Shown here piece by piece: positions 23,590 to 36,169 of a DNA stretch of 64,000 bases. Each line of letters begins with the position of its first letter. Within the stretch, counting starts at the first letter, position 1. The stretch comes from Candidatus Latescibacterota bacterium (lineage in GTDB: Bacteria; Latescibacterota; UBA2968; UBA8231). Below the pieces are notes generated by a model. It searched no databases and was not told the DNA's origin. It saw only the letters and a list, made by a program, of their open reading frames with translations. Position numbers and translations under genes: made by a program. The stretch spans positions 128,001 to 192,000 of the forward strand of contig CBDETK010000013.1 of NCBI GenBank assembly GCA_965242865.1, given 5' to 3'.

Positions 23590-25233
23590 ATGGCCCTGCT
23601 ATTCCTCGCCTTGGTCGCGGCCAGCGTCAGTGCCCAGTCCGCCCCGCACTTCGTTGAGGTGACCCGCGCCGCCGGCCTTGACTTCCGCTATGTAAACGGC
23701 GCGAGCGGCCGCAAGTACCTGCCAGAGGCCATCGGCTCGGGCGCGGCGTTCTTCGACGCCGATGGCGATGGCTTCCTCGACCTGTACATCGTCAATGGCA
23801 CGGCTCTGCCCGGCTATGACGGCCCGCCCGGCACCAATGCCCACTACCGCAACGAGGGCGACGGCACCTTCGCGGATGTCACCGAGGCGGCGCGCACCGG
23901 CCATGCGGGGTACGGCATGGGGGCCGCGGTCGGCGACGTGGATAACGACGGTCGCCCCGACTTGTACGTGACCAACTACGGCCCCAACGTCCTCTATCAC
24001 AACCGGGGCCAAGGCCGCGCCTTTGCCGATGTGACGGCTCGGACCGGCCTCGATGACCCGGGTTGGGGCACCCACGCGGCCTTTGCCGATTACGACCGCG
24101 ATGGCGACTTAGATCTCTACGTAGCCAATTACATGGAGTTCGATTTGGGCGCGAACAAGGCGTGCTTTACGGGCGCGGCGCGCTCTATCTGCGGCCCCCT
24201 CGCATACCCCGGCCAGTCTGGCGTGCTCTATCGCAACGATGGCGGGCTCGCGTTTGGCAATGCGACGGTCGCGGCCGGCTTGTCCAACGACGAGGGCCGG
24301 CAACTCGCTGCGGTGTTTGGCGACTGCGACGACGACGGCGACCCCGACCTGTTCATCGCCAACGACCGACAGCCCAATTTCCTCTTCCTCAACAACGGCG
24401 ACGGCACCTTTGCGGAGCACGGCATCCTCGCCGGGGTGGCGTACAACGAGGAAGGGCGCGCTGAGTCCGCTATGGGCGCGGATTTTGGCGACTACGACAA
24501 CGACGGCCGGCTCGACATTATCCTCGCCACCTTCCAGTGGCTGCCCAACACGCTCTATCACAACGACGGCGGGGGCTTTTTTAGCGACCTGACGTTTGCC
24601 GCCCAGCTCGGCGCGCCGAGTGTGCCCTACTTGGGCATGGCCGCGGTCTTTTTTGACTGCGACAACGACGGCTTCCTCGACGTCTTTGTCACCAACGGCC
24701 ACCTCGATGAAAACGTGCGCGAATTTGACCCGGACACGACCTATCCTCAGCAAAACCAACTGTTCCGCAATCGGGGCGATGGCACCTTTGCCGATGTGAG
24801 CAACGACAGCGGGCCGGGCCTGCGCGTTGAGCGCGTCAGCCACGGCGCTGCTTTGGGCGATTACGACAACGACGGCGACATCGACCTCTTCGTCTCGGAT
24901 TCGGACGCGCCCCACTGCACCTTGTTGCGCAACGACCCCAGCGGTCGCAACAACTATCTGACGGTTGAGGCCATCGGCCGCCACAGCAGTCGCGACGGGA
25001 TCGGGGCCAAAATCCGCGCTGTGGCAGGGGGCCTCGTGCAAAAGCGCGAAATTCGCCGCAGTTACGGATACATGGGCAGCAGCGATGTGCGCTTGATCCT
25101 CGGCTTGGGCCGCCATGCCCAAGTAGATTCACTGCAAATTTTTTGGCCCCGCGGCGCGGTCCAGACCCTCTTAAACGTCGCAGCCAATCAGCACCTTGTC
25201 ATTGAAGAAGCCGAGAACAGCCATCCTAAATGA
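23590..25233 (+). CDS. CRTAC1 family protein (FG-GAP/VCBS repeats + ASPIC/UnbV)
   Basis: Repeated DxDxDG motifs; C-terminal 'SSRDGIGAKI...GLG...I.WP.G..Q'. Confidence 0.92.
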   Translation: MALLFLALVAASVSAQSAPHFVEVTRAAGLDFRYVNGASGRKYLPEAIGSGAAFFDADGDGFLDLYIVNGTALPGYDGPPGTNAHYRNEGDGTFADVTEAARTGHAGYGMGAAVGDVDNDGRPDLYVTNYGPNVLYHNRGQGRAFADVTARTGLDDPGWGTHAAFADYDRDGDLDLYVANYMEFDLGANKACFTGAARSICGPLAYPGQSGVLYRNDGGLAFGNATVAAGLSNDEGRQLAAVFGDCDDDGDPDLFIANDRQPNFLFLNNGDGTFAEHGILAGVAYNEEGRAESAMGADFGDYDNDGRLDIILATFQWLPNTLYHNDGGGFFSDLTFAAQLGAPSVPYLGMAAVFFDCDNDGFLDVFVTNGHLDENVREFDPDTTYPQQNQLFRNRGDGTFADVSNDSGPGLRVERVSHGAALGDYDNDGDIDLFVSDSDAPHCTLLRNDPSGRNNYLTVEAIGRHSSRDGIGAKIRAVAGGLVQKREIRRSYGYMGSSDVRLILGLGRHAQVDSLQIFWPRGAVQTLLNVAANQHLVIEEAENSHPK

Positions 25234-25306: not shown

Positions 25307-25386
25307 TCTTGAATGATGCAGAACTGCTATAAATGAGCGCAGCCAAGCATCTCATGCAGGCCTGCCAAACAACGGAGAACTGTCGC

Positions 25387-26730
25387 ATGAAGTTGAGAAC
25401 AATCGCCCTGCTCACGCTCGCGGCTTGTGGCACCGAACCGGAGCCGAGCTATGTCGCCCGCATTGGTGAAACCACCCTATCGCCGGAAGACTTTAGGGAG
25501 CGCGCCCAAAAGCTGCTGCAAACCGGCTACGAGCACCTCGAGGAGATCAATGCGGACGCCAAGCTGGAACTGCTCAACGGCGTGATCGCCCGCGCGTTGT
25601 TGGTGCGCGAAGGGCTGCGGCGCGGCCTCGACCGCGAGCCGAGCATTGCCCGCGCAGTTGAGCGCGCCGAGCAAAAGGCCGTGGTGGCCAAACTGTACGA
25701 GGAAGAGGCCCTGCGCGGCGAGTACACGTCAACCGAAGAGGAGCTGCGGGCTTTTGCCCAAGAACGCGAATACGATGTCGAGGTCTTGAGCCAGCACATT
25801 GTCTGCGCCACCGCGGAAGAGGCCGAGGAGGTGCTGGCGGCCCTGCGAGAGGACACTCCGTTTGAGGCACTGGTGCCCATTTATTCGACCGCGACCATCC
25901 AGCGGCGCTTTGGCCCGGCCGGTCGGTTGGGGTGGTTCAAGATGGGCGACATGTTGCCCGAGCTGAAGGAACCCCTGCGGACCATGGCCGCGGGGCAACT
26001 CTATCCCCGGCCCGTGAAGACCCAAATGGGCTTTCACGTCTTCCGGCTCGACGACCGGCGGCCCTTGGATTTTGCGACCCAACGCGCATGGATCGCAGAA
26101 AAAGCGCGGGTGCAAAAGCGGGCCGACGACATGGAGCAATACGTCCAGCACCTGCGCCGCGACTACGAGCTAACGGCCCACCCCGAGGCCATAGCAGCCT
26201 TGACCGCGCCCGCTGGCGAGGAGTGGGTGCTCTTTCGTTGGCGCGGTGGCCAACTGACCTCGGCCGCGTACTGGGCCGCCCTAGCCGCGAGCCACAGCCG
26301 GCTCGACAGCGCCGCTCGCTACAAGGCGGCCGAGAACTTGGCCGGGGTGCAGATTATGATGGCCGAGGCCCGCAAGTTGCAATACGACCGCGACCCCGCG
26401 GTGCGCACGCCGGTGGAGCGCCAGCGCGACGCGCTCATCGTCGATTGGCTCTACCGCACTGAGGGCCAAAAGGTGGCGCGCCAGCAGGCCATCACCGAAG
26501 AGACCATTCGCGCGTACTACGACGCCAACATTGAGTTGTTTACCCGCAGTGACGGCAAAGTGGCCGATCTATCCTTGGTCTATAACAGCATCGGCACCCT
26601 GCTGAGGCAGCAGGCGGCAACGCAGGCCATGGACGCCTTTATCGCACGGCTCCGCGAGCAATCCAGCGCGGATATTGAGATAAATACCGCTGCGCTGGCC
26701 GAAGTTGTTTTAGCACTCGACAGGCCGTAA
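25387..26730 (+). CDS. Parvulin-type peptidyl-prolyl isomerase lipoprotein (PrsA/SurA-like)
   Basis: Lipobox 'LAAC'; 'HIVC', 'GRLGWF', 'PVKTQMGFHVF'. Confidence 0.85.
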   Translation: MKLRTIALLTLAACGTEPEPSYVARIGETTLSPEDFRERAQKLLQTGYEHLEEINADAKLELLNGVIARALLVREGLRRGLDREPSIARAVERAEQKAVVAKLYEEEALRGEYTSTEEELRAFAQEREYDVEVLSQHIVCATAEEAEEVLAALREDTPFEALVPIYSTATIQRRFGPAGRLGWFKMGDMLPELKEPLRTMAAGQLYPRPVKTQMGFHVFRLDDRRPLDFATQRAWIAEKARVQKRADDMEQYVQHLRRDYELTAHPEAIAALTAPAGEEWVLFRWRGGQLTSAAYWAALAASHSRLDSAARYKAAENLAGVQIMMAEARKLQYDRDPAVRTPVERQRDALIVDWLYRTEGQKVARQQAITEETIRAYYDANIELFTRSDGKVADLSLVYNSIGTLLRQQAATQAMDAFIARLREQSSADIEINTAALAEVVLALDRP

Positions 26731-26743
26731 AGCTCGTGCCTTT

Positions 26744-26847
26744 CACTAATCCATCTTGTGCGGATAACTCCGCTCCCACCCCACCGCACCAAACTCTTCA
26801 TCGGACCGCAGCGAGCCGCTTTCGGAGGCGTACACCAAGTTGTAATC
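26744..26847 (-). pseudogene. Divergent copy of the sulfatase 3' tip (copy 1)
   Basis: Aligns ungapped with 33251-33354; about 12 substitutions by my count, includes the stop codon. Confidence 0.9.
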
Positions 26848-26908
26848 AGCGGCGCGACCGATCACAAAGAGTGCGGGCTGCACTACAATGTATGAGAGGA
26901 ATCGCGCA

Positions 26909-27259
26909 ATGACCCACGCCTTGGAATGGCGCTACCACCGCCCTGGCTGACAAAGTTGCAAGCGCGCCCGAGAGTTTCTCGTGCAAAACAACATCGCCGA
27001 CGGCGTCGTGCAGAGCGCGACCAAAGAACCGATCTCCGGCCCGGCTGCCCTCGCCCTGCTGGAAGGCGCGACCGAGCTGTTCGTCGCCCAAGGGCAGCGC
27101 GTCCTCCGTTTTGACCTGACGGCGCAACGGCCGGCGGACGAGGAGTTGCTCCAGCTTCTATTGGGGCGTTCTGGCAAGCTCCGGGCCCCCGCGCTCCGCT
27201 GGGGGACGCGTCTTGTCGTCGGGTACAACCAAGCGCTGCTGCCGCTGGCGTTGGGTTAG
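26909..27259 (+). CDS. ArsC-family (seleno)protein with UxxC motif (TGA 26948-26950 read as Sec)
   Basis: MTHALEWRYHRPG-TGA-QSCKRAREFL...'LLGRSGKLRAPALRWG..LVVGYN'; RBS gagagga; hairpin CGAGA-GTT-TCTCG 3' of the TGA. Confidence 0.8.
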
Positions 27260-27322
27260 ATGGAGAAAGGCATGTCGAGTTCGACCTTGACTTGCCGGAC
27301 CATTGTGGACGCCTTGAATTAG

Positions 27323-28471
27323 ATGGAGAAAGATATGTCAAATTCGACCTTGGAAAATGATGTCTCCCTCAAGGAGGAAGAGAGCGATGTTGAAGAAGAG
27401 AAGGAGGACCCACAAGAAAGAATTACAACTCCATTTAACCCTGAGCAGATCAAAATTCGCACCACCCACATCGTCGTTGAACAGCTTATATCGCGCATTA
27501 AGCACGAGGAAATCAACCTAGCACCGGATTTTCAACGACAGGCCGGTATCTGGAACAAAGAGCGCAAGAGCCGCCTCATCGAATCGCTGTTATTACGCAT
27601 TCCTCTCCCGGTATTCTATGTCGCCGCAGACGAGTCTGAAAAGTGGTCGGTCGTTGACGGCATTCAGCGCATGAAGACCATCTATGACTATGTGACGGGT
27701 AAGTTCCCTCTGAGACGACTTGAATATCTAACCAAACTCAACGAATGTATTCACGAAAAACTGCAGAGGCCGTTGCAGCGACGAATCAGTGAGACCCAAC
27801 TCATCGTCAAAGTCATAGAGTCAGGGACCTCACCGGATGTGCTGTTCAACATATTTCGACGTATCAATACAGGTGGCATGACGTTGAACGGACAAGAGAT
27901 ACGCCATGCACTGAATCCTGGTCCTGTTCGGGGCTATTTGAAGGAACTCGCCGAATCCGACGAGTTCAAAAAAGCCACGGACGGTAGAATCAGCCCATTA
28001 CGGATGGTTGATCGGGAGTTCGTACTGCGATTCCTCGCTTTTCATATCATGCCGTGGGAAGAATACTCCTCCAGCGACCTCAATGGCCACCTTGTAAGCA
28101 CAATGAAGAAAATCAACCGCATGAGTGAGCGTGAACGCAACAACTTCGCTACTGATTTCAGGCGAGCAATGTTAGCGGCATTCGATGTATTCGGTGAGCA
28201 TACATTCCGCAAACCACCTAACACACCTGACGACCGCCGACCTCCAATTAATAAGGGTATTTTTGAGGCGTGGAGCGTTCAGTTTGCACGTTGTTCGCCA
28301 GAGCAAATAAGCGCACTTGTCGAGCAGCGGAATGAAGTCCAATGTCGTTTCAAAAAACTGGTGGCAGAAGATAGTGCCCTTCTAAAATCCATCTCCTATT
28401 CGACTGGATCGCCACAGCACGTACAGAAGCGATTCCAAGCAATTAAGCAACTTGTCAAGGAGTTCGTCTGA
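27323..28471 (+). CDS. DUF262 (ParB/GmrS-like) protein; Menshen NsnA-like
   Basis: 'PDFQR..IW', 'LIESLLLRIPLP', 'VVDGIQR', 'IFRRINTGG..L..QEIRHA'; lower GC. Confidence 0.88.
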   Translation: MEKDMSNSTLENDVSLKEEESDVEEEKEDPQERITTPFNPEQIKIRTTHIVVEQLISRIKHEEINLAPDFQRQAGIWNKERKSRLIESLLLRIPLPVFYVAADESEKWSVVDGIQRMKTIYDYVTGKFPLRRLEYLTKLNECIHEKLQRPLQRRISETQLIVKVIESGTSPDVLFNIFRRINTGGMTLNGQEIRHALNPGPVRGYLKELAESDEFKKATDGRISPLRMVDREFVLRFLAFHIMPWEEYSSSDLNGHLVSTMKKINRMSERERNNFATDFRRAMLAAFDVFGEHTFRKPPNTPDDRRPPINKGIFEAWSVQFARCSPEQISALVEQRNEVQCRFKKLVAEDSALLKSISYSTGSPQHVQKRFQAIKQLVKEFV

Positions 28472-29586
28472 TGCTTAGCAATATCAAGCTGATGCACTTC
28501 AAGTGCTTTGAGCAGTTGGATCTAAATTGCAAACAGCTCAATCTCCTCTGCGGTTTGAATGGGATGGGTAAGAGCAGCGTCATCCAAGCGTTGCTTATGC
28601 TCCGGCAATCGTCCGAAACAGGAGAATTGTCCGCCGGTAGGCTGGCCTTGAACGGCGAGCGAGGCGCTGTGGGTACAGGCGAGGATGTACTGTTTGAAGA
28701 CGCCGAGCGCGATGTGTTGGGATTCATGCTTGAGAGCAACAAAATAACAAGACCATGGAAAATGGAATTCGACTGCAGTAGAGAGGCTGATGTTCTATCG
28801 TCCAGCAAGGCTAAGGACGATAGATATAGCGAATGGCGTGATGTACCACCGTTTGGAGGAAAGCTCGTTTACGTGAATGCAGAACGGGTCGGCCCCCGGA
28901 AGTTGTACCCAGTCTCCACCGACGTGTTGACTAGGCGCGGAGATTTCGGTGAAAGCGACGAGTACGCGTGGGGCTATCTAAACCGCCATCAAAACGACCT
29001 TCTACAAGCCGACGACCCGCGTTGCATTGGCAGAGGAGAGCGTCCGCTATTCACCATTGTTGAGCAGTGGATGCAGGACGTGTGCCCCGGTGTTAATCTA
29101 CGACTGGAAGAGATGAGGGAGGTTGACGCGGTCATTGCCGGATTTAGGTTCGACCGAGAGGACGATGTGGCTTCCCACTGGTATCGGGCGACCAATGTCG
29201 GGTTTGGTCTATCGTACGCGCTGCCGGTCATCCTCGCCCTGCTTGCAAAGCCCGGCACACTATGCCTGATCGAAAACCCAGAAGCTCACCTACATCCTCG
29301 AGGCCAGACCAAGCTAGCCGAATTGGCAGCCCGTGCGTCGAAGGCCGGCGTTCAAGTGATTGCTGAGACCCATAGCGATCACTTCATGGATGGCGTACGA
29401 ATCGCGGTCCGCGACGGGCTTATCGAACCAGACGCCGCCACATTCCATTACTTTGAGCGCAAAGGCAATCAGACCGTCGTCTCTTCGCCACAGATAGACT
29501 CGGATGGGCGGTTGTCGTCGTGGCCGATCGGCTTCTTTGACCAGCACGACGAGAATCTGGCAAGGCTACTTGCACCAAAGGAATGA
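28471..29586 (+). CDS. AAA_15/21 ABC-like ATPase with DUF3696; Menshen NsnB-like
   Basis: Walker A 'GLNGMGKS', 'NVGFGLSY.LP', 'IENPEAHLHP', 'ETHSDH', 'WPIGFFDQ'. Confidence 0.9.
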   Translation: MLSNIKLMHFKCFEQLDLNCKQLNLLCGLNGMGKSSVIQALLMLRQSSETGELSAGRLALNGERGAVGTGEDVLFEDAERDVLGFMLESNKITRPWKMEFDCSREADVLSSSKAKDDRYSEWRDVPPFGGKLVYVNAERVGPRKLYPVSTDVLTRRGDFGESDEYAWGYLNRHQNDLLQADDPRCIGRGERPLFTIVEQWMQDVCPGVNLRLEEMREVDAVIAGFRFDREDDVASHWYRATNVGFGLSYALPVILALLAKPGTLCLIENPEAHLHPRGQTKLAELAARASKAGVQVIAETHSDHFMDGVRIAVRDGLIEPDAATFHYFERKGNQTVVSSPQIDSDGRLSSWPIGFFDQHDENLARLLAPKE

Positions 29587-29587
29587 T

Positions 29588-30538
29588 ATGCGCGAGTTCG
29601 TACTGAATGAAGCTAGTATTACAGCCCCCGATCAGCGTACTGCGATAGATTGGCTCGCAGATATCGCCAAAGGGATGTCGTCACTCATTGTTGAGCAAGT
29701 CGTTCAGAACACGTTACGAACGAGCCCCCCTCCACAGGAGATACATTATCGAGACAATAGCTCGCTCTCGGAGGTAATTCTTGCACTGAGACAATGCGGT
29801 TTAGTGGACGAGCATCGGTTCCTCATGCGTAGTAGCGTTAAGTCCCCTCTGATAAACGAACTTGAACAAAGTGTCAAGGATCGGTTCCTCGCGTGTGGAG
29901 GACGGACGTTTCCATCGCCAGTAGGCGATTCCCTCGTCTTATGTGCCATCTCCGATCGGATCGCTGTCAGCTTTCCCTCTGATTCAGTCTGGAACAGCGA
30001 CCTAATTAAGGTTGACTTTTACGAACTGAAGGACGACGAAAGTGGCGAGGTAAGCGAGGAAGAAACGTTTGAAGAAATTGACAATCTCGCCCGCTCCAAT
30101 CACGCGCCTCCAATATGCGAACGCCATCGCCAGAGTCTTCGCGGCCAAATCAAGAGTTATGCAGAATTGTGGAATAACAGAAAACAGGCATTTCCAGATC
30201 TCCTATTCGGGCCGGACGTAGAGGATCATCTTACGGGACTGAATACCGGCCACTTGGAGACTGTCGTTCGCAAGCTAGCGAGTCTCAATGCTGCTGCCGC
30301 CGAGTGGCGCGATGTTGGCGGCGGCGCACCCCAGTGGAAGACCAAAGTGACTGACGAAAACGAGGCGTTGAAGAACAACGCCAGGGAGCGAGAAAAGCGT
30401 CGGTTCAGATCGTGCGATGGTACGCACCCACTGTTCCTGTGGCACACTCGCTTTGGCAGTGCTGGCCGAATCCATCTCCGTTTCGATTCAAGTTCGCGTG
30501 AAATCGAAATTGGCTACATTGGAAAGAAGCTGCTTTAA
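29588..30538 (+). CDS. Putative effector with C-terminal RelE-like nuclease region; Menshen NsnC-like
   Basis: Starts 1 nt after the ATPase stop; C-terminal 'R.FR......F.WHTRFG..GRIHLRF.....IEIGYIGKKL'. Confidence 0.7.
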   Translation: MREFVLNEASITAPDQRTAIDWLADIAKGMSSLIVEQVVQNTLRTSPPPQEIHYRDNSSLSEVILALRQCGLVDEHRFLMRSSVKSPLINELEQSVKDRFLACGGRTFPSPVGDSLVLCAISDRIAVSFPSDSVWNSDLIKVDFYELKDDESGEVSEEETFEEIDNLARSNHAPPICERHRQSLRGQIKSYAELWNNRKQAFPDLLFGPDVEDHLTGLNTGHLETVVRKLASLNAAAAEWRDVGGGAPQWKTKVTDENEALKNNAREREKRRFRSCDGTHPLFLWHTRFGSAGRIHLRFDSSSREIEIGYIGKKLL

Positions 30539-30670
30539 GATTAGCGTCGAGCCGCTTCAAGAGGTGCCCAGTGCCTTCGCATGGAGCGTTTTTCATAAGG
30601 CGAGCCGCTTTTTCTTTATACAAGAACCAAATCCAGAGTTTTGGTCCCACTTCAAGCACTTACCGCTCCC

Positions 30671-30881
30671 CTAATCGATCTTGTGCGGATAACTCCGCTC
30701 CCACCCCGCCGCCCCGAACGCTTTATCGGACCACAGCGAGCCACTCTCCGAAGCATACACCAAGTTGTAATCGTGTGAGGTCTGTACGGAGCGCATGATC
30801 TCGCGCCAGAGCGCGGCGTCCAAGCGCCGGTATTCGGCTGTGTGCGCCGCAGATTCGGCGAGGTTGTGCTGCTCTTGGGGA
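30671..30881 (-). pseudogene. Copy of the sulfatase 3' end (copy 2)
   Basis: Near-identical to 33253-33463 (4 substitutions by my count). Confidence 0.92.
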
Positions 30882-31033
30882 ATTAGTAGGACTGGTCTTT
30901 GTTCTGGACGCGCTTTTCTTTTTCGAAAAGGCCCTGCATGTCTTTTTTCTCAATATTTTCTCAGTATCTTATATTGTAAGGTCATTTTCCCTGCTTCAGA
31001 CGACGAGCTGGACAGAGAACGCAATCAGCAAGA

Positions 31034-31239
31034 GCCCTGCTAAAGGGCGCGACCGAGCTATTCGTCGCCCAAGGACCGCGCGTCCTCCGCTTCGACCTGA
31101 CGGCGCAACGGCCGGCGGACGAGGAGTTGCTCCTGCTTCTATTGGGGCGTTCTGGCAAGATCCGGGCCCCGCGCTCCGCTGGGGGACGCGCCTAGTGGTC
31201 GGGTTCAACCAAGCACTGCCGCCGCTGGCGTTGGGCTGA
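31034..31239 (+). pseudogene. Divergent copy of the 3' half of the ArsC-family gene
   Basis: Aligns with 27053-27259; many third-position changes, a 1-bp deletion, stop TGA instead of TAG. Confidence 0.92.
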
Positions 31240-31316
31240 GTGCTTTCAGCACAGCGGCCCCTATATTCCGGCGTCTTCATCGCCGTTTGCTTGGCCCCTT
31301 AAAGAGAGGATTTGCA

Positions 31317-33380
31317 ATGCTACATCATTCAACATGTACTACAAAAAACTTAATTATCAAACTAATAAAAAATTATGAGGAATGTTCTATTCACGCTGCA
31401 CTGCTTCAGCATTGGGCGAAGATCAACGAAATTCCCTTTTCTAAGTTCAAGCAGACGAATGCAGCCGCTCGTTTTCTAACAGCGTCTCATCTCAGCGAAG
31501 TGGAAAGCATTCGCCGAATACTAAGTCAGTCCATTTTCAAGCTATCTATAAAAGACATAGAGCGCATTTTTGAGGTTCTAATAGATTCTGGCAGACGCAA
31601 ATCTCAAGGAGCTTTCTACACACCTGATTTTATAATCGAATACTTAGTGCGACATGGATTACAGCTAGGCAATCACCGCAGGAAAGAAGCTCCGTTAATT
31701 TGCGATCCCGCTTGTGGGAGTGGTGGATTTCTCATACGGGCAGCAGAGATATTAAAAGACGATATTTCTCCCGATAGAGCATTTGCGGAATGCCTCGTTG
31801 GATTTGACAACGACCCTTGGGCCATTGAGCACGCTCGTTGTCTCATCGAGATCTTTTTGATTCTTCATGGTTTTGAGCTCTCCGGCATCGATTTGCGTCT
31901 CTTCTGCCGCGATACCCTACTTTGTTCTCACGAAAACTTATGGAACTTATCAGGTGCTTACAATGGATTCAATCTAGTTACGACAAACCCTCCATACGTC
32001 AAGCTGCAAAACCTCGACTTTGAATACCGGACGAGACTAGCAAAAAAATTCAATCGTTATGCTAATGGGAATTTCAGTTTAGCCCTTCTTTTTTTAATCG
32101 CTGGGCATAGACTGCTCAGGCCGCAAGGATGCTTGGCCGTGATTACCCAAAACAATCTATATACTTCTTTCGCAGGTAGTGGCGTTAGATTCTACTTACA
32201 GAATCAGCAGTGCATACGGCGGATCGTTGACTTTGGTCATTACAGAGTTTTTAAGCAAGCTAACGCATATACTTGCTTAGTCTTTCTTGGGACCGAGAAG
32301 AAGGCTTGTTTTGAATTTGTTAGAATAGAGGGAGCTTGCGTCGATAGTCTCAGAAACGCAACGTTCTCAGAAATTCTTTTTTCAGACTTGCGGGCCGACA
32401 AATGGCGTCTAGCAAAAAGCAATCACTTAAGGAATCTTGAAATAATTGAATCGACTGGAAAACCTCTTGGGACCATAGCCTCTATCAAGGTTGGATTTGC
32501 AACGCTAAAAGATTCGGTTTTCTTAGTCCGCATAAGGGACGATCAGTACTGTACTGCAAATCCGATGAATCAAGAAACTCACCTAGTAGAAATCGGTCTC
32601 ACTCGTCCCGCCGTTAAAGTTGCAAACCTAAATAGAGCGGAAGACATAGAAAAAAATGACTTGCGAATCATCTTTCCTTATAAAAGGATAGAAGAGAAAT
32701 ACCGTCTAATGTCAGAGGAGGATATAAAGAATCGATTTCCGCAGGGGTATTCCTATCTGCGGAAATACCGCGATTTCTTAGAGAGCCGAGACAAGGGAAA
32801 GAAACGCTACGAAGGATGGTACGCTTGGGGGCGAACGCAAGGAATGGAAGCGAAGGGGCCTAAGCTGCTGACCAAGACATTTAGTAGATTCCCACAGTTT
32901 ATGCTCGACAGGAGCGATCAACTTTTTTGTAATGGCTATTCGGTAACTATAAAAGACGATTCTCTATTTAGGGATAAACTTACCATCGAAGTCCTTGAGA
33001 AAATCACCAACAGCAGGATTATGTATTACTACGCGAAACTGACTAGTTTCCAAATTGAAGGTAATTATCAGTGCTATCAGAAGAACTTTATCGAGCGAAT
33101 CGGTATTGTCAATATGACGGAAAGAGAAATGACAACGTTTATAGAACTGCCGAAACTCGAAGCAGACGAATACTTGGAAGGTCTCTATGGGATCAAAAGT
33201 AAAGAAATTGAGGAGATCTGTGGTTCAGCTTTATCGAGCACTAGCACCGTCACTAATCGATCTTGTGCGGATAACTCCGCTCCCACCCCGCCGCCCCGAA
33301 CGCTTTATCGGACCACAGCGAGCCACTCTCCGAGGCATATACCAAGTTGTAATCGTGTGAGGTCTGTACGGAGCGCATGA
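31317..33380 (+). CDS. N6-adenine DNA methyltransferase (Eco57I/TaqI-like, gamma class), no adjacent endonuclease
   Basis: 'GAFYTP', 'DPACGSGGFL', 'NPPY'; low GC; the last ~42 codons overlap the sulfatase antisense. Confidence 0.88.
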   Translation: MLHHSTCTTKNLIIKLIKNYEECSIHAALLQHWAKINEIPFSKFKQTNAAARFLTASHLSEVESIRRILSQSIFKLSIKDIERIFEVLIDSGRRKSQGAFYTPDFIIEYLVRHGLQLGNHRRKEAPLICDPACGSGGFLIRAAEILKDDISPDRAFAECLVGFDNDPWAIEHARCLIEIFLILHGFELSGIDLRLFCRDTLLCSHENLWNLSGAYNGFNLVTTNPPYVKLQNLDFEYRTRLAKKFNRYANGNFSLALLFLIAGHRLLRPQGCLAVITQNNLYTSFAGSGVRFYLQNQQCIRRIVDFGHYRVFKQANAYTCLVFLGTEKKACFEFVRIEGACVDSLRNATFSEILFSDLRADKWRLAKSNHLRNLEIIESTGKPLGTIASIKVGFATLKDSVFLVRIRDDQYCTANPMNQETHLVEIGLTRPAVKVANLNRAEDIEKNDLRIIFPYKRIEEKYRLMSEEDIKNRFPQGYSYLRKYRDFLESRDKGKKRYEGWYAWGRTQGMEAKGPKLLTKTFSRFPQFMLDRSDQLFCNGYSVTIKDDSLFRDKLTIEVLEKITNSRIMYYYAKLTSFQIEGNYQCYQKNFIERIGIVNMTEREMTTFIELPKLEADEYLEGLYGIKSKEIEEICGSALSSTSTVTNRSCADNSAPTPPPRTLYRTTASHSPRHIPSCNRVRSVRSA

Positions 33381-34719
33381 TCTCGCGCCAGAGCGCGGCG
33401 TCCAAGCGCCGGTATTCGGCTGCGTGCGCCGCGGATTCGGCGAGGTTGTGCTGCTCTTGGGGATCTTCCTGCACATCGAAAAGCCCGGCCGCGCCATTGC
33501 CGTATTTGACCAGCTTGTACCGTCCGTCGTAGGCCATCCAGCCGGACTGCAAGCCGCCGACTAGCAGGTTGCGCGGCGCATCGCCAGCCAAGCCCAAGCC
33601 GGGCAGGGGCCTAGCATCCATGTACTCGGGAACGCCGTGGCCAGACGAGGCGAGCAGGGTGGCGGTGACGTCCGTGAGGCAAACCAAATCGTCGCACACC
33701 GTGCCAGTGGCCCCGCTCGGCTGGCGAACCAGCATGGGCACGTGACAACTGCCTTCGTAGAAGTTGCCCTTGGCATTTACGCCGTGATCGCCCACTAGGT
33801 CGCCGTGGTCTGAGGAAAAAATGACGAGGGTGTTGTCGAGACGACCGCTTTCCTCCAAGGCCGCGAGGATGCGGCCCACTTGGTGGTCTATCTGCAAGAT
33901 GAGGGCCGAATAGTGGGCGCGCACCTTGCGCTTTTGTTCCTCGGTGTAGGGGCCTTGGGTCTCTGGAGTCCATATCGGCACGCCGGGCCGACGCGGCGGA
34001 TGGATGCCCTCGCGGACATCGCGGTGAATGGGGTCGCCCGGGGCGGGCGCGGGAATTTTATCTACATCGACTTGGGCCAAAAACTCTGGCGTGGGGTCGT
34101 ATGGGTCGTGCGGGCCGGGAAAGCCGACCATGCAGGCGAAGGGCCGTTCGTCGTCGTACTCGCGGATGAAGCGAGCCGCCTCCTCGCCGACGAAGTAATC
34201 CCAATAGCAGTCCCAAGGCAGAAGCGACACGCAAGCACCGCGCTGTTCGTCGTAGCCTACGTGCTCCTTGCCCATGTACTTGCGGTGGCCGCGCTGTTGC
34301 AAGTAGTGCCAGTAGTCGTCTTGGATGTTGACCCACACCTTGTCTTCGCAGGCGATGCGGTGTTGGAAGCCAAAAGAGGCGTCCCAAGGGTAGAAGTGCA
34401 TCTTGCCGATGGCCGAGGTGAGGTAGCCGGCGTCGGTCAACATCTCCGCCCAAGTGCGGATGCCGCATGCGGCACGGTCCGGGCGCAGGTAATTGCCGTT
34501 GGTCAGCACGTGGGTGCGCCAAGCGTTGAGGCCGGTAAGCAGGGAACAACGCGCCGGCACACAGACCGGGTGCAAGCTATACGCGCGATCGTAGCGGATG
34601 CCCTCGGCGGCAATGCGGTCGATGTGGGGCGTGGAAATGTGGGGGGCACCGTAACAACTGAGAAAGTCGTGGCGCAGCTGATCGGGCATGATGAACAATA
34701 GGTTGGGTCGGTCGGGCAT
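33253..34719 (-). CDS. Sulfatase (Cys-type formylglycine-dependent)
   Basis: 'LFIMPDQLR', 'CVPARCSLLTG', 'GKMH', 'PHDPY', 'SSDHGD'. Confidence 0.93.
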   Translation of the reverse strand: MPDRPNLLFIMPDQLRHDFLSCYGAPHISTPHIDRIAAEGIRYDRAYSLHPVCVPARCSLLTGLNAWRTHVLTNGNYLRPDRAACGIRTWAEMLTDAGYLTSAIGKMHFYPWDASFGFQHRIACEDKVWVNIQDDYWHYLQQRGHRKYMGKEHVGYDEQRGACVSLLPWDCYWDYFVGEEAARFIREYDDERPFACMVGFPGPHDPYDPTPEFLAQVDVDKIPAPAPGDPIHRDVREGIHPPRRPGVPIWTPETQGPYTEEQKRKVRAHYSALILQIDHQVGRILAALEESGRLDNTLVIFSSDHGDLVGDHGVNAKGNFYEGSCHVPMLVRQPSGATGTVCDDLVCLTDVTATLLASSGHGVPEYMDARPLPGLGLAGDAPRNLLVGGLQSGWMAYDGRYKLVKYGNGAAGLFDVQEDPQEQHNLAESAAHAAEYRRLDAALWREIMRSVQTSHDYNLVYASESGSLWSDKAFGAAGWERSYPHKID

Positions 34720-34768
34720 GGTCTCATTCCGTTGGTTGGGGTGTTTTCGCGGCCTTGGTGCGCTCATA

Positions 34769-36169
34769 CTAATCTCCTCGGCCAAGACCAGCAAGTACCA
34801 GCCGTTTGAACAGGTCGCCGCGCTCGGCGTAACTGGCAAACTGATCGAAGCTGGCGCAGGCCGGCGAAAGCAGCACCACGTCGCCGGTTCGCGCCCAGCG
34901 CCGAGCGAGGGCGAGGGCTTGAGATAGGTCGCGGCAAAAATGGGCGATCTCGCCCGCGCCCGCCCGCTGTATGGCCGCGGCAATGCGGGGGGCCTCTTGG
35001 CCGATCAGCAGCGCGGCGCGCACCCGGCCCGCGGCAATCGCAGTGCCCAAGGCACTGAAGTCGGCCCCTTTTGTCGCGCCGCCCGCAATCAGCAGCAGGG
35101 GCGCGTCAAAGGCGCGCAGGGCCGCACAGGCCGCATCAACCGTCGTGGCCAGTGAGTCGTTGTAATAGGTGACGCCGGCGCACTCGGCCACGTATTCGAG
35201 GCGGTGGGGCAGGCTCGTAAAGGCGCGTAGGGCCTCGGCAAAGCGGGTCGGCGACGCCCCAAAAGCCAAAGCACCGGCGACAGCCGCGGCGGCATTGGTC
35301 CAATTGTGTTGGCCCCGCAGGGGCAAGTCGGCCACCGGACAGAGGGCGGAGGGCTGCGCCCCGGGGCGAGCGGCCCACAACTGGTCGTTGGCAATCCACG
35401 CGCCCGGCGCGCTCGGGGCGGTGGGGCTAAAGCCCCACAGGGCGGCCGAACTCTCGGCGGCAAAGGCCCGGGCCGTGGGGCAATCCCGCTGGACGATGAG
35501 GATGTCGCCGGGCGTTTGGTAGCGGCACACGGGCTTTTTAGCGGCCACGTATTCGGCGAGATCGGCGTGGTAGTCGAGGTGGTCCTCGGCGATGGAGAGC
35601 ACCACGGCGATGTAGGGGCTTTGGTCGAGGTCTTGCAGTTGAAAGCTGGACAGCTCTAGGACCACGCGGTCGGTCGGCTGCACCTCGTCGAGGAAGTCGA
35701 GCGGCGGCCGGCCGATGTTGCCGCCGCTAAACACCCGGATTGCGGGGTCGGTCGCCAAGAGCGCGTGCAGCAGCGCGGTCGTGGTGCCTTTGCCCTTGGT
35801 GCCGGTGACGCCGAGGACGGGCGCGGGGCACAGCTGTAAAAAGAGCCGAGTCTGGCTCGACACTTCGACGCCGCACCCGCGCGCCGCCTGTAGGCGCGGG
35901 TGTAGCGCTGGCAGGCCCGGGGTGCGGAACAGCAGGTCGAAGTCGGTCAGGTCGTCGAGATAGTGCTCGCCAACGCGCCATTGTTGTACGCCCTCCACCG
36001 GCGTGGCCGGGGCGCGTACATCGCACACAGAAAAGGAAATCTGATGCGCGTGGAGAAAGCGGGCTAGGGCGCGGTTTTCCACGCCGAGGCCGAGGAGGGC
36101 AATGCGCCGCTGGTGCAGGGGTTGGACCGCGCTTGACGCTCGGGGGCTTGGAGATTTTTTTAGCATCAT
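34769..36169 (-). CDS. murD: UDP-N-acetylmuramoyl-L-alanine--D-glutamate ligase
   Basis: 'GVTGTKGKGTT', 'GNIG', 'ELSSFQL', 'DHLDYH', 'LLSPACASFDQF...ERG'. Confidence 0.92.
   Translation of the reverse strand: MMLKKSPSPRASSAVQPLHQRRIALLGLGVENRALARFLHAHQISFSVCDVRAPATPVEGVQQWRVGEHYLDDLTDFDLLFRTPGLPALHPRLQAARGCGVEVSSQTRLFLQLCPAPVLGVTGTKGKGTTTALLHALLATDPAIRVFSGGNIGRPPLDFLDEVQPTDRVVLELSSFQLQDLDQSPYIAVVLSIAEDHLDYHADLAEYVAAKKPVCRYQTPGDILIVQRDCPTARAFAAESSAALWGFSPTAPSAPGAWIANDQLWAARPGAQPSALCPVADLPLRGQHNWTNAAAAVAGALAFGASPTRFAEALRAFTSLPHRLEYVAECAGVTYYNDSLATTVDAACAALRAFDAPLLLIAGGATKGADFSALGTAIAAGRVRAALLIGQEAPRIAAAIQRAGAGEIAHFCRDLSQALALARRWARTGDVVLLSPACASFDQFASYAERGDLFKRLVLAGLGRGD

Follow-up and report, generated by a model that had tools for sequence, protein, structure and literature searches.

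Within a 64,000-nucleotide stretch of the genome of Candidatus Latescibacterota bacterium (contig CBDETK010000013.1, positions 128,001 to 192,000 of the forward strand; GenBank assembly GCA_965242865.1), hereafter the window, two cargo units stand in tandem between an ArsC-family gene and a sulfatase gene: a Menshen unit, carrying a predicted anti-phage system, and a methyltransferase unit. Around and between them lie short copies of the 3' ends of the flanking genes, here termed tips, together with other relics of the flanks. The original prediction, made from the letters of the window alone, had read these tips as the ends of orthologues that evolved under selection in sister lineages, arrived with the cargo and record donors at different distances. 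From the layout of the locus, its counterparts in relatives and contigs of public metagenomes, we consider it rather probable that two alleles of one cargo hotspot, derived from close relatives, were stacked by homologous-plus-illegitimate recombination. The assembly (6.0 Mb) is a metagenome-assembled genome (MAG) with an estimated contamination of 6.8%, and the runs that contain the window sequence are sponge metagenomes. Below, genomes of relatives are labelled G, their loci L, members of protein clusters P and public runs X, and C13 denotes a contig of this genome; protein domains were assigned with Pfam and defence genes with PADLOC.

The Menshen unit opens with the full ArsC-family gene (26909-27259, + strand; Pfam ArsC), the Menshen-linked allele, whose TAG stop overlaps an NsnA-type start. 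Comparison of repeats resolves the following segment (27260-27322, + strand) into the relic of an old NsnA start (27260-27289), a 21-nt filler and the end of an ArsC allele (27311-27322). The system itself, NsnABC, occupies 27323-30538 on the + strand (PADLOC and Pfam) and comprises NsnA (27323-28471; PADLOC 3.7e-139), NsnB (28471-29586; 1.1e-102) and NsnC (about 29582-30538; 1.6e-58). NsnA (ParB/DUF262), NsnB (an ATPase with DUF3696) and NsnC are adjacent and near full profile length in PADLOC, and Pfam agrees (GmrSD_N, AAA_15/21, DUF3696); on this sequence evidence the three genes are predicted to form a complete Menshen anti-phage system. The unit closes with sulfatase tip 2 (30652-30881, - strand), which holds the last 69 codons and stop of the gene (30671-30880; 206 of 210 positions identical to the gene end) and the Menshen-type junction GGGAGCGGTAAG.

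The methyltransferase unit begins with a copy of the region upstream of cysH and the first eight cysH codons (30882-31033, + strand; 88-92% identical to C13:605869-606006), followed by the ArsC 3' tip, the methyltransferase-linked allele (31034-31239, + strand), which has 17 substitutions relative to the full gene, a TGA stop and a frameshift absent from the original prediction, namely a 1-nt deletion (C5 to C4) after 31167. Next comes the gene for a type II DNA methyltransferase, Eco57I-like and of the gamma class (31317-33222, + strand; Pfam N6_Mtase and Eco57I; PADLOC MTase_II 1.9e-108), which has lost its own stop, its open reading frame (ORF) continuing for ~50 codons more to 33380, antisense to the sulfatase gene, and which has lost its partner gene as well, no nuclease accompanying it here. 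A sulfatase downstream junction (33226-33252) of the type TGAxGG...CTCGxxAAAGCT leads into the full sulfatase gene (33253-34767, - strand; Pfam Sulfatase 7.4e-45), which the MurD gene adjoins; the longest sulfatase ORF reaches 34983, and orthologues match residues 3-504 as numbered from 34767. To the left of the Menshen unit, a SurA-like PPIase gene (25333-26730, + strand; Pfam Rotamase_2/Rotamase) is followed by a 34-nt filler (26712-26745) between the point at which its homology to orthologues breaks off and the stop of sulfatase tip 1, bearing TGA-A-GG after that stop as in one junction type. Tip 1 itself (26746-26847, - strand; last 33 codons and stop) is identical to the gene end at 90 of 102 positions and abuts a cysH 3' tip (26847-26903, + strand), the last 15 codons, stop and 8 nt of a PAPS reductase-like gene (...KECGLH).

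When the whole assembly was searched, the sulfatase end turned up three times (100%, 98% and 89% identity; E 8e-117 to 2e-32) and the 3' part of ArsC twice (100% and 92%), in no case outside the locus; the sulfatase repeats span 26743-26847 for tip 1 and 30652-30881 for tip 2. Compared codon by codon with the gene end at 33253-33354, tip 1 differs in 12 codons, seven synonymous (among them GTA/GTG, TAT/TAC, TCG/TCC and GAG/GAA) and five replacement, with a ratio of replacement to synonymous differences per site (pN/pS) of 0.19. Tip 2 differs from 33253-33462 in four codons, three of them synonymous (pN/pS 0.095). Between the ArsC tip and 27053-27259 we count 11 synonymous steps (ten purely synonymous codons and one step within GAA/AAG) and six replacement steps (pN/pS about 0.2), and the stop is TAG in the full gene and TGA in the tip. 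The original prediction had counted about 12 changes with seven synonymous in tip 1, three synonymous changes of four in tip 2, and about ten synonymous changes plus the stop swap against about six replacements in ArsC; all of these counts hold, and the ratios, which it had proposed as a check on selection, are not near 1.

Pooled over the tips, 21 of 33 changes are synonymous, with transitions and transversions in the proportion 23:10. Expectations were derived for kappa values of 1-6 and for omega as measured among orthologues of the matching segments (0.35, 0.25 and 0.19). If both copies were neutral, 8-10.5 synonymous changes would be expected (P for 21 or more, 2e-5 to 2e-4), which bears out the earlier view that neutral decay is unlikely; if one copy had been neutral from the split onwards and the other had evolved at the omega of orthologues, 11.5-14 would be expected (P = 6e-4 to 0.012); and if both were under purifying selection at the level of orthologues, 19-21. 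The pooled excess rejects neutral decay and, less strongly, decay of one copy from the start. Branch lengths of the ArsC pair agree: the tip branch measures 0.067 against 0.044 for the gene, a 1.5-fold difference where site counts and omega predict ~2.3-fold for a tip free to decay from the split. The tip branches are too short for copies free to decay since that time.

The sulfatase orthologue was located in 24 same-genus genomes (86-94% amino-acid identity), and 17-kb loci were fetched around 20 of these. Their usual arrangement is cysH>ArsC><sulfatase<MurD, and the genes in the 6 kb upstream of ArsC are conserved. ArsC lies less than 240 nt from the sulfatase gene in 10 of the 20 loci; three carry NsnABC between the two genes, one of them together with a DarT1-NADAR pair; one (L035) carries a methyltransferase and a 306-aa gene; two retain cargo remnants (a methyltransferase remnant in one and an NsnC remnant in G030); one has a large secreted protein between the flanks; and in three there is no ArsC within 15 kb of the sulfatase. 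Neither Pfam nor PADLOC revealed an integrase or recombinase in either unit here or in 16 cargo ORFs of relatives, and pieces of a DDE transposase occur in one relative's locus. Because cargo varies across loci and no integrase accompanies those 16 ORFs, the ArsC/sulfatase interval is an integrase-free cargo hotspot between two convergent core genes in this genus. Two cargo units at the hotspot occur only in this genome among those examined, and no second sulfatase tip was found in the 20 relatives' 17-kb sulfatase loci, nor a second ArsC tip in the loci of 20 ArsC-bearing relatives; clean swaps are therefore the rule and the relic-bearing stack the exception. Three of these loci deserve separate mention. 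In L035 the 306-aa gene, which has no Pfam match and is a candidate nuclease, is kept between the methyltransferase and the sulfatase gene. In L031 (13174-14964; G023) the same hotspot holds, downstream of NsnABC, a DarT1-like ADP-ribosyltransferase with an N-terminal SSB-like piece and a NADAR antitoxin. In the closest relative, G030, ArsC stands alone between unrelated regions (L053:2188-2584), 22 kb from the sulfatase gene; it keeps a ~20-nt remnant of an NsnA start while the NsnC remnant still adjoins the sulfatase gene, the Menshen system having been torn apart through rearrangement.

The boundaries of the cargo carry a further regularity. An ArsC TAG stop overlapping ATGGAGAAAG, the start of NsnA, is found in the full gene here, in all three NsnABC-bearing relatives and in G030, whereas a TGA stop with a GTGCxTTCxGCA leader is found in the tip here, in L035 with its intact methyltransferase, and in L056; six of the 20 relatives have the ArsC TGA stop, and none of the six is an empty or NsnABC site. 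On the other flank, the sulfatase stop is followed by GGGAGCGGTAAG in tip 2, G030, L033 and L038, and by TGAxGG...CTCGxxAAAGCT in the full gene here and in L035, L041 and L030. The last codons, the stop and the first bases past each flanking gene thus co-vary with cargo across species, and the TAG/TGA swap is a marker of a cargo-linked allele, not a random change.

Where the tips came from was sought among protein clusters and metagenome contigs. Names attached to cluster members point to Gemmatimonadota. The 49-member protein cluster of the ArsC ORF includes an intact 92-aa ORF, P0133, with which the tip has K, P, F and W in common; the tip differs from it at three of 67 residues and from the gene of its own genome at six of 67. 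Three of the six tip replacements are common to P0133 and so were fixed in a working gene; the Trp also occurs in P0132 as well as P0133, so it is not the mark of a within-genome copy. In a sample of 15 listed members of the 361-member sulfatase cluster, none matches tip 1 exactly, the best (P0156) sharing two of its five replacements. A scan of metagenome contigs with the sulfatase protein (80 loci) yielded no strain-level variants, full-length matches being at most 76% identical, and one partial fragment (residues 7-197) at 85%. In a maximum-likelihood tree, tip 1 falls in a polytomy with G030, G007 and the pair formed by the gene and tip 2 (support for the clade 95/89, given as paired branch supports here and below), and by eye its site patterns conflict: three sites join the gene with G030, and two or three join tip 1 with the gene.

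Contigs from four public runs (X1, X6, X8 and X9) were compared with the window. X6 tiles the region with 0 differences, including contigs that bridge 27123-30700, 30946-31123 and 31104-33282, and the joints of SurA, tip 1 and the cysH tip are bridged in two other studies (X9, 26619-26876, 0 differences; X1, 26466-26816, 4 differences). X1 also shows a joint from 31064 to 27113 (depth 5.6), which may be a graph artefact linking the two ArsC copies and was disregarded. In X8, a contig of depth 217 covers 31111-34864 with 74 differences in 3754 nt (about 2%); it keeps the order of ArsC 3' end, methyltransferase and sulfatase, and an extra A after 31167 restores the ArsC frame. NsnABC is present in X8 at a depth of 1-10, and the SurA contig (depth 356) departs from the window sequence at 26706, so it seems that this conspecific strain has the methyltransferase allele only and lacks the SurA joint. 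Tip 1 differs from its gene by 12%, yet the X8 strain, about 2% diverged, is without its two joints, and tip 1 is therefore best read as the captured fragment of a diverged allele. Taken with the synonymous excess and the shared junction types, the intact ORF and the variant strain support the view that the tips evolved for the most part within functional genes, in lineages that were separate but very closely related.

Further relics accompany the tips. The full cysH end lies inverted at C13:~605128-605184, ~450 kb from the cysH tip and identical to it at 56 of 57 positions, and in relatives the 6 kb upstream of ArsC are collinear with C13:605127-611116 reversed. The cysH tip, alone among the relics, is thus a segment present at both ends of an inversion in opposite orientation, and from this comparison it is clearly legible as a local copy linked to the inversion. 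The segment 30882-31033 is AT-rich, and within it the cysH start has changed from ATG to CTG; an internal deletion runs from cysH codon 8 to about ArsC codon 48. Since this segment copies the cysH upstream region, the methyltransferase unit must once have begun upstream of a second cysH-ArsC pair. Behind the full ArsC gene, a 42-nt repeat of the ArsC end and NsnA start (27248-27289 and 27311-27352, 83% identity) preserves an older NsnA start, and 27311-27322 comprise the last three codons and stop of another ArsC allele; the Menshen module has therefore been replaced at least once.

Several large rearrangements, whose breakpoints coincide exactly with the 3' ends of genes (SurA, a TPR gene and cysH; C13:605127 and window 26706-26711), set this genome apart from its relatives. 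In relatives SurA adjoins the C13:12667 region and the TPR gene the C13:4438671 region, and the SurA, TPR and cysH breakpoints, when compared, indicate more than one inversion between this genome and G030, G009 and G012. The homology of the SurA gene to its orthologues ends at 26706-26711, its final codons having been replaced, and beyond this point G030, G012 and G009 run into another region; by this comparison 26706-26711 is a rearrangement breakpoint.

The sequence of events that we favour would run as follows. Hotspot alleles occur in this genus in several forms (empty, Menshen NsnABC, methyltransferase with or without a nuclease, and NsnABC with DarT1-NADAR), each with its own last codons, stops and junctions on both flanks. 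DNA of a closely related strain or sister lineage would enter by homologous recombination at one side and an illegitimate join at the other, the latter presumably linking a point 230 nt inside the sulfatase 3' end to one ~150 nt upstream of cysH and leaving tip 2 and a second cysH-ArsC copy, which an internal deletion would later have trimmed to the promoter piece and the ArsC tip. Replacement of the Menshen module may have been an earlier or accompanying event, as may the ~450-kb inversion, in which 57 nt of the cysH end would have been duplicated and tip 1 caught at the junction. After the joins the tips would have decayed (the frameshift, Trp to Arg, ATG to CTG). The synonymous excess follows if tip and gene are diverged alleles, each of which was once a working gene.

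The homologous anchor that such an event demands is visible: the methyltransferase unit runs unbroken into the sulfatase-MurD region, collinear with relatives, and the left unit into ArsC and the cysH tip as in relatives. At the illegitimate joint, 30881/30882, codon 70 from the sulfatase stop is joined to the cysH upstream region with 0-1 nt shared. As to foreign origin, the paired copies are diverged alleles, one of which exists intact elsewhere, and no donor was identified among the species representatives. Of the tips that meet at this central joint, tip 2 is part of the Menshen unit and the ArsC tip part of the methyltransferase unit; no more than one of them can therefore have come in with cargo, and the other is the displaced end of the resident. 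Which unit was the newcomer may be argued both ways: the Menshen relics on both flanks of G030 and the 2% distance between tip 2 and gene favour addition of the methyltransferase unit, and the methyltransferase-only X8 strain, whose contig lies as far from the window (2.0%) as its flanks do (2.1-2.7%), favours addition of the Menshen unit, as do the many joints inside that unit.

Several observations weigh against this reading, and some of them speak for a purely local origin, in which a tandem or inversion-associated duplication (of a segment beginning upstream of cysH and ending 230 nt within the sulfatase gene) was followed by a cargo swap in one copy by homologous replacement and by decay of the redundant copies. 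At the DNA level, with 20-24 same-genus species representatives as the comparison set, each tip is nearest to the gene of its own genome: tip 1 at 90/102 against 87/102 for G030, tip 2 at 206/210 (98% identical to the gene end) against 194/210, and the ArsC tip at 187/206 against 186/206 for G030. The full ArsC gene and its tip pair as sisters (98/92), G030 joining them next (90/82), and the two share states absent from 20 species representatives, such as TGG for TGC. Polarised with 20 orthologues as outgroups, the ArsC full-gene branch has six synonymous and no replacement changes, and the replacement-rich tip branch five synonymous and six replacement plus the frameshift; for tip 1 the gene branch has 3/1, the tip branch 2/3 and 2/1 are ambiguous, and tip 1 alone has changed W to R at a Trp invariant in 20/20 orthologues. 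Part of the synonymous excess therefore sits on the branch of the functional gene, and the replacements, frameshift and lost invariant Trp show that the tips have also undergone ordinary decay. The excess is borderline for each tip alone, all counts being small; the X8 contig begins at 31111 and so covers the ArsC 3' end only; the 0-1 nt of microhomology fits illegitimate joining and does not prove it; and the ArsC pair is 8% apart whereas tip 2 and its gene are 2% apart (4/210, where ~16 would be expected at the distance of G030). One event with one donor should give similar distances, so gene conversion of tip 2 or a later Menshen replacement must be invoked. The inversion-linked cysH tip is a local copy in any case. 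We nevertheless regard a local origin of the whole as unlikely. The pooled synonymous fraction is too high for a freely decaying copy (P 6e-4 to 0.012) and the ArsC tip branch is 1.5 and not ~2.3 times that of the gene; three of six ArsC tip replacements recur in the intact ORF P0133 and the TGG in P0132 as well; the junction type at the end of one ArsC copy differs from that of the other, and both types recur across species; and tip 1 is 12% from its gene, yet the X8 contig, about 2% diverged from the window, is without the joint to SurA.

That the tandem is an assembly artefact, with strain haplotypes of the hotspot bearing Menshen and methyltransferase placed end to end by the assembler, finds some purchase in the contamination estimate of the MAG, in the co-existing strains of different hotspot content seen in X8 and in the absence of the joint 30881/30882, between tip 2 and the cysH upstream copy, from the bridging contig pieces listed, a gap that bears on the stacking of two alleles also. 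It is very improbable all the same, the second unit being internally deleted, mutated at its start codon and frameshifted, and the X6 contigs and those of two other studies crossing the neighbouring segments and joints. Direct repeats of a gene 3' end around cargo also resemble the attL/attR duplications of integrase-type islands. Such islands bring a substitute for the 3' end of their target within the attachment site, as those that target tRNA genes do, and their tandem integration could displace such ends. We rejected this reading as scarcely credible: no recombinase accompanies either unit or the 16 cargo ORFs scanned in relatives, no two joints have repeats of the same length (57, 105, 206 and 230 nt), the joint positions differ and the cargo boundaries vary with cargo type.

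Stacking of two alleles from close relatives thus remains our preferred account, in a form narrower than the original prediction. Its claim that the tips evolved under selection in sister lineages holds as regards the synonymous excess, P0133, the X8 contig and the shared junction types, and must be tempered by the share of the excess on the gene branch and the decay of the tips themselves. Arrival with the cargo applies to some tips only, one tip of the central joint being the end of the resident and the cysH tip being local. Donors at different distances were not identified: each tip being nearest to its own gene, the sources must be very close relatives rather than identifiable donors at graded distances. 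The own gene was also the closer match in all three cases where the best match had been expected to be a relative's orthologue, which by the rule set out in that prediction counts against imports from the sampled species.

Two features of the neighbourhood are independent of this history. The ArsC-family gene has an in-frame TGA at 26948-26950, in a U-x-x-C motif at the redox Cys position, and TGA occupies this column in 20/20 same-genus ArsC orthologues; gene callers give only a 92-aa ORF downstream of it. A hairpin lies 3' of the TGA (CGAGA/UCUCG here, CAAGA/UCUUG in relatives), and the genome has a tRNA-SeC (C13:3729554) and a SelB match over the cut-off. With a conserved TGA and the selenocysteine (Sec) machinery, the gene has the attributes of the ArsC-like selenoproteins tabulated in PMC1794560, and Sec insertion is predicted. 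Both ArsC copies here have Trp (TGG; 27179-27181 and 31179-31181) where all 20 species representatives have Cys (TGC) and where other cluster members have Cys or Tyr, or Trp in P0132 and P0133; the conserved second Cys of ArsC has thus been replaced in this lineage. Farther upstream, a 547-aa secreted protein accounts for seven direct repeats of 61 nt at 23590-25233 (64-75% identity to the reference copy): they are its FG-GAP/VCBS-type repeats, an ordinary repeat-protein structure.

The mechanism is of an already known kind, which the locus illustrates with good resolution without establishing a new principle. Core-gene-flanked defence hotspots and cassette loci exchange variable defence content through flanking homology, without integrases; here, unlike in such hotspots, the boundary of the cargo falls within the final codons of each flanking gene, and C-termini and stop codons therefore change together with the cargo. 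Homology-facilitated illegitimate recombination was reportedly first worked out by de Vries and Wackernagel (2002) and by Prudhomme (2002). For the effector-immunity arrays of the type VI secretion system of Vibrio cholerae it has been proposed as the route of sequential displacement (PMC5361080), and the likeness is close: at a conserved flank a new module enters by one homologous anchor and one illegitimate join, its predecessor is shifted aside, 3' ends of displaced genes are left as relics, and clean homologous swaps are far commoner than those that leave relics. The differences from those arrays are that the flanks here are the 3' ends of convergent housekeeping genes, that the cargo is anti-phage, that relics of three flanking genes and a promoter piece are preserved, and that the process is known here from its products alone.

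Insertion of restriction-modification (RM) genes with long target duplication offers a second comparison (PMC2853133). A methyltransferase insert without a mobility gene, bounded by direct repeats of more than 30 bp that are single-copy in genomes lacking the insert, agrees with that description, the 230-nt repeats at 30652-30881 and 33234-33463 having no second copy in the 20 relatives' loci and no accompanying mobility gene. In contrast to those insertions, the repeats here are 2-8% diverged and end in different junction types, and part of the far flank (cysH upstream and ArsC tip) is included in the insert, which points to stacking of two alleles rather than target duplication. Of the R and M genes that, by the criterion of that study, both lie in the insert, the methyltransferase alone is present here, the 306-aa gene of L035 missing. 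Duplication of DNA in association with inversion is reported for Helicobacter pylori (cited in PMC4671568). The 57-nt cysH end resembles that case, since a copy in opposite orientation (56/57 identical) stands at either end of the ~450-kb inverted segment; the diverged sulfatase and ArsC tips are not explained in this way.

Defence islands have mostly been catalogued by content, and the hand-over of integrase-free cargo is usually inferred from presence and absence. At this locus a failed clean swap has left both alleles, with six or more relics of the flanks, in the genome of a single uncultured sponge symbiont, and this allows a direct reading of the joints, of the order in which some events occurred and of how selection acted on the flanks. 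The example also sets two bounds on arguments from dN/dS in relics, since the synonymous excess comes partly from the branch of the functional partner and, at a stacking joint, only one of two relics can be an import. As a tentative and somewhat doubtful extension, defence cassettes in this genus may travel with replacement ends (last codons, stop and terminator region) for both flanking core genes, whose 3' ends would serve as portable homology arms for integrase-free exchange among species; selection on the cargo would then keep shared junction haplotypes, and rare failed exchanges would leave a datable record of donors.

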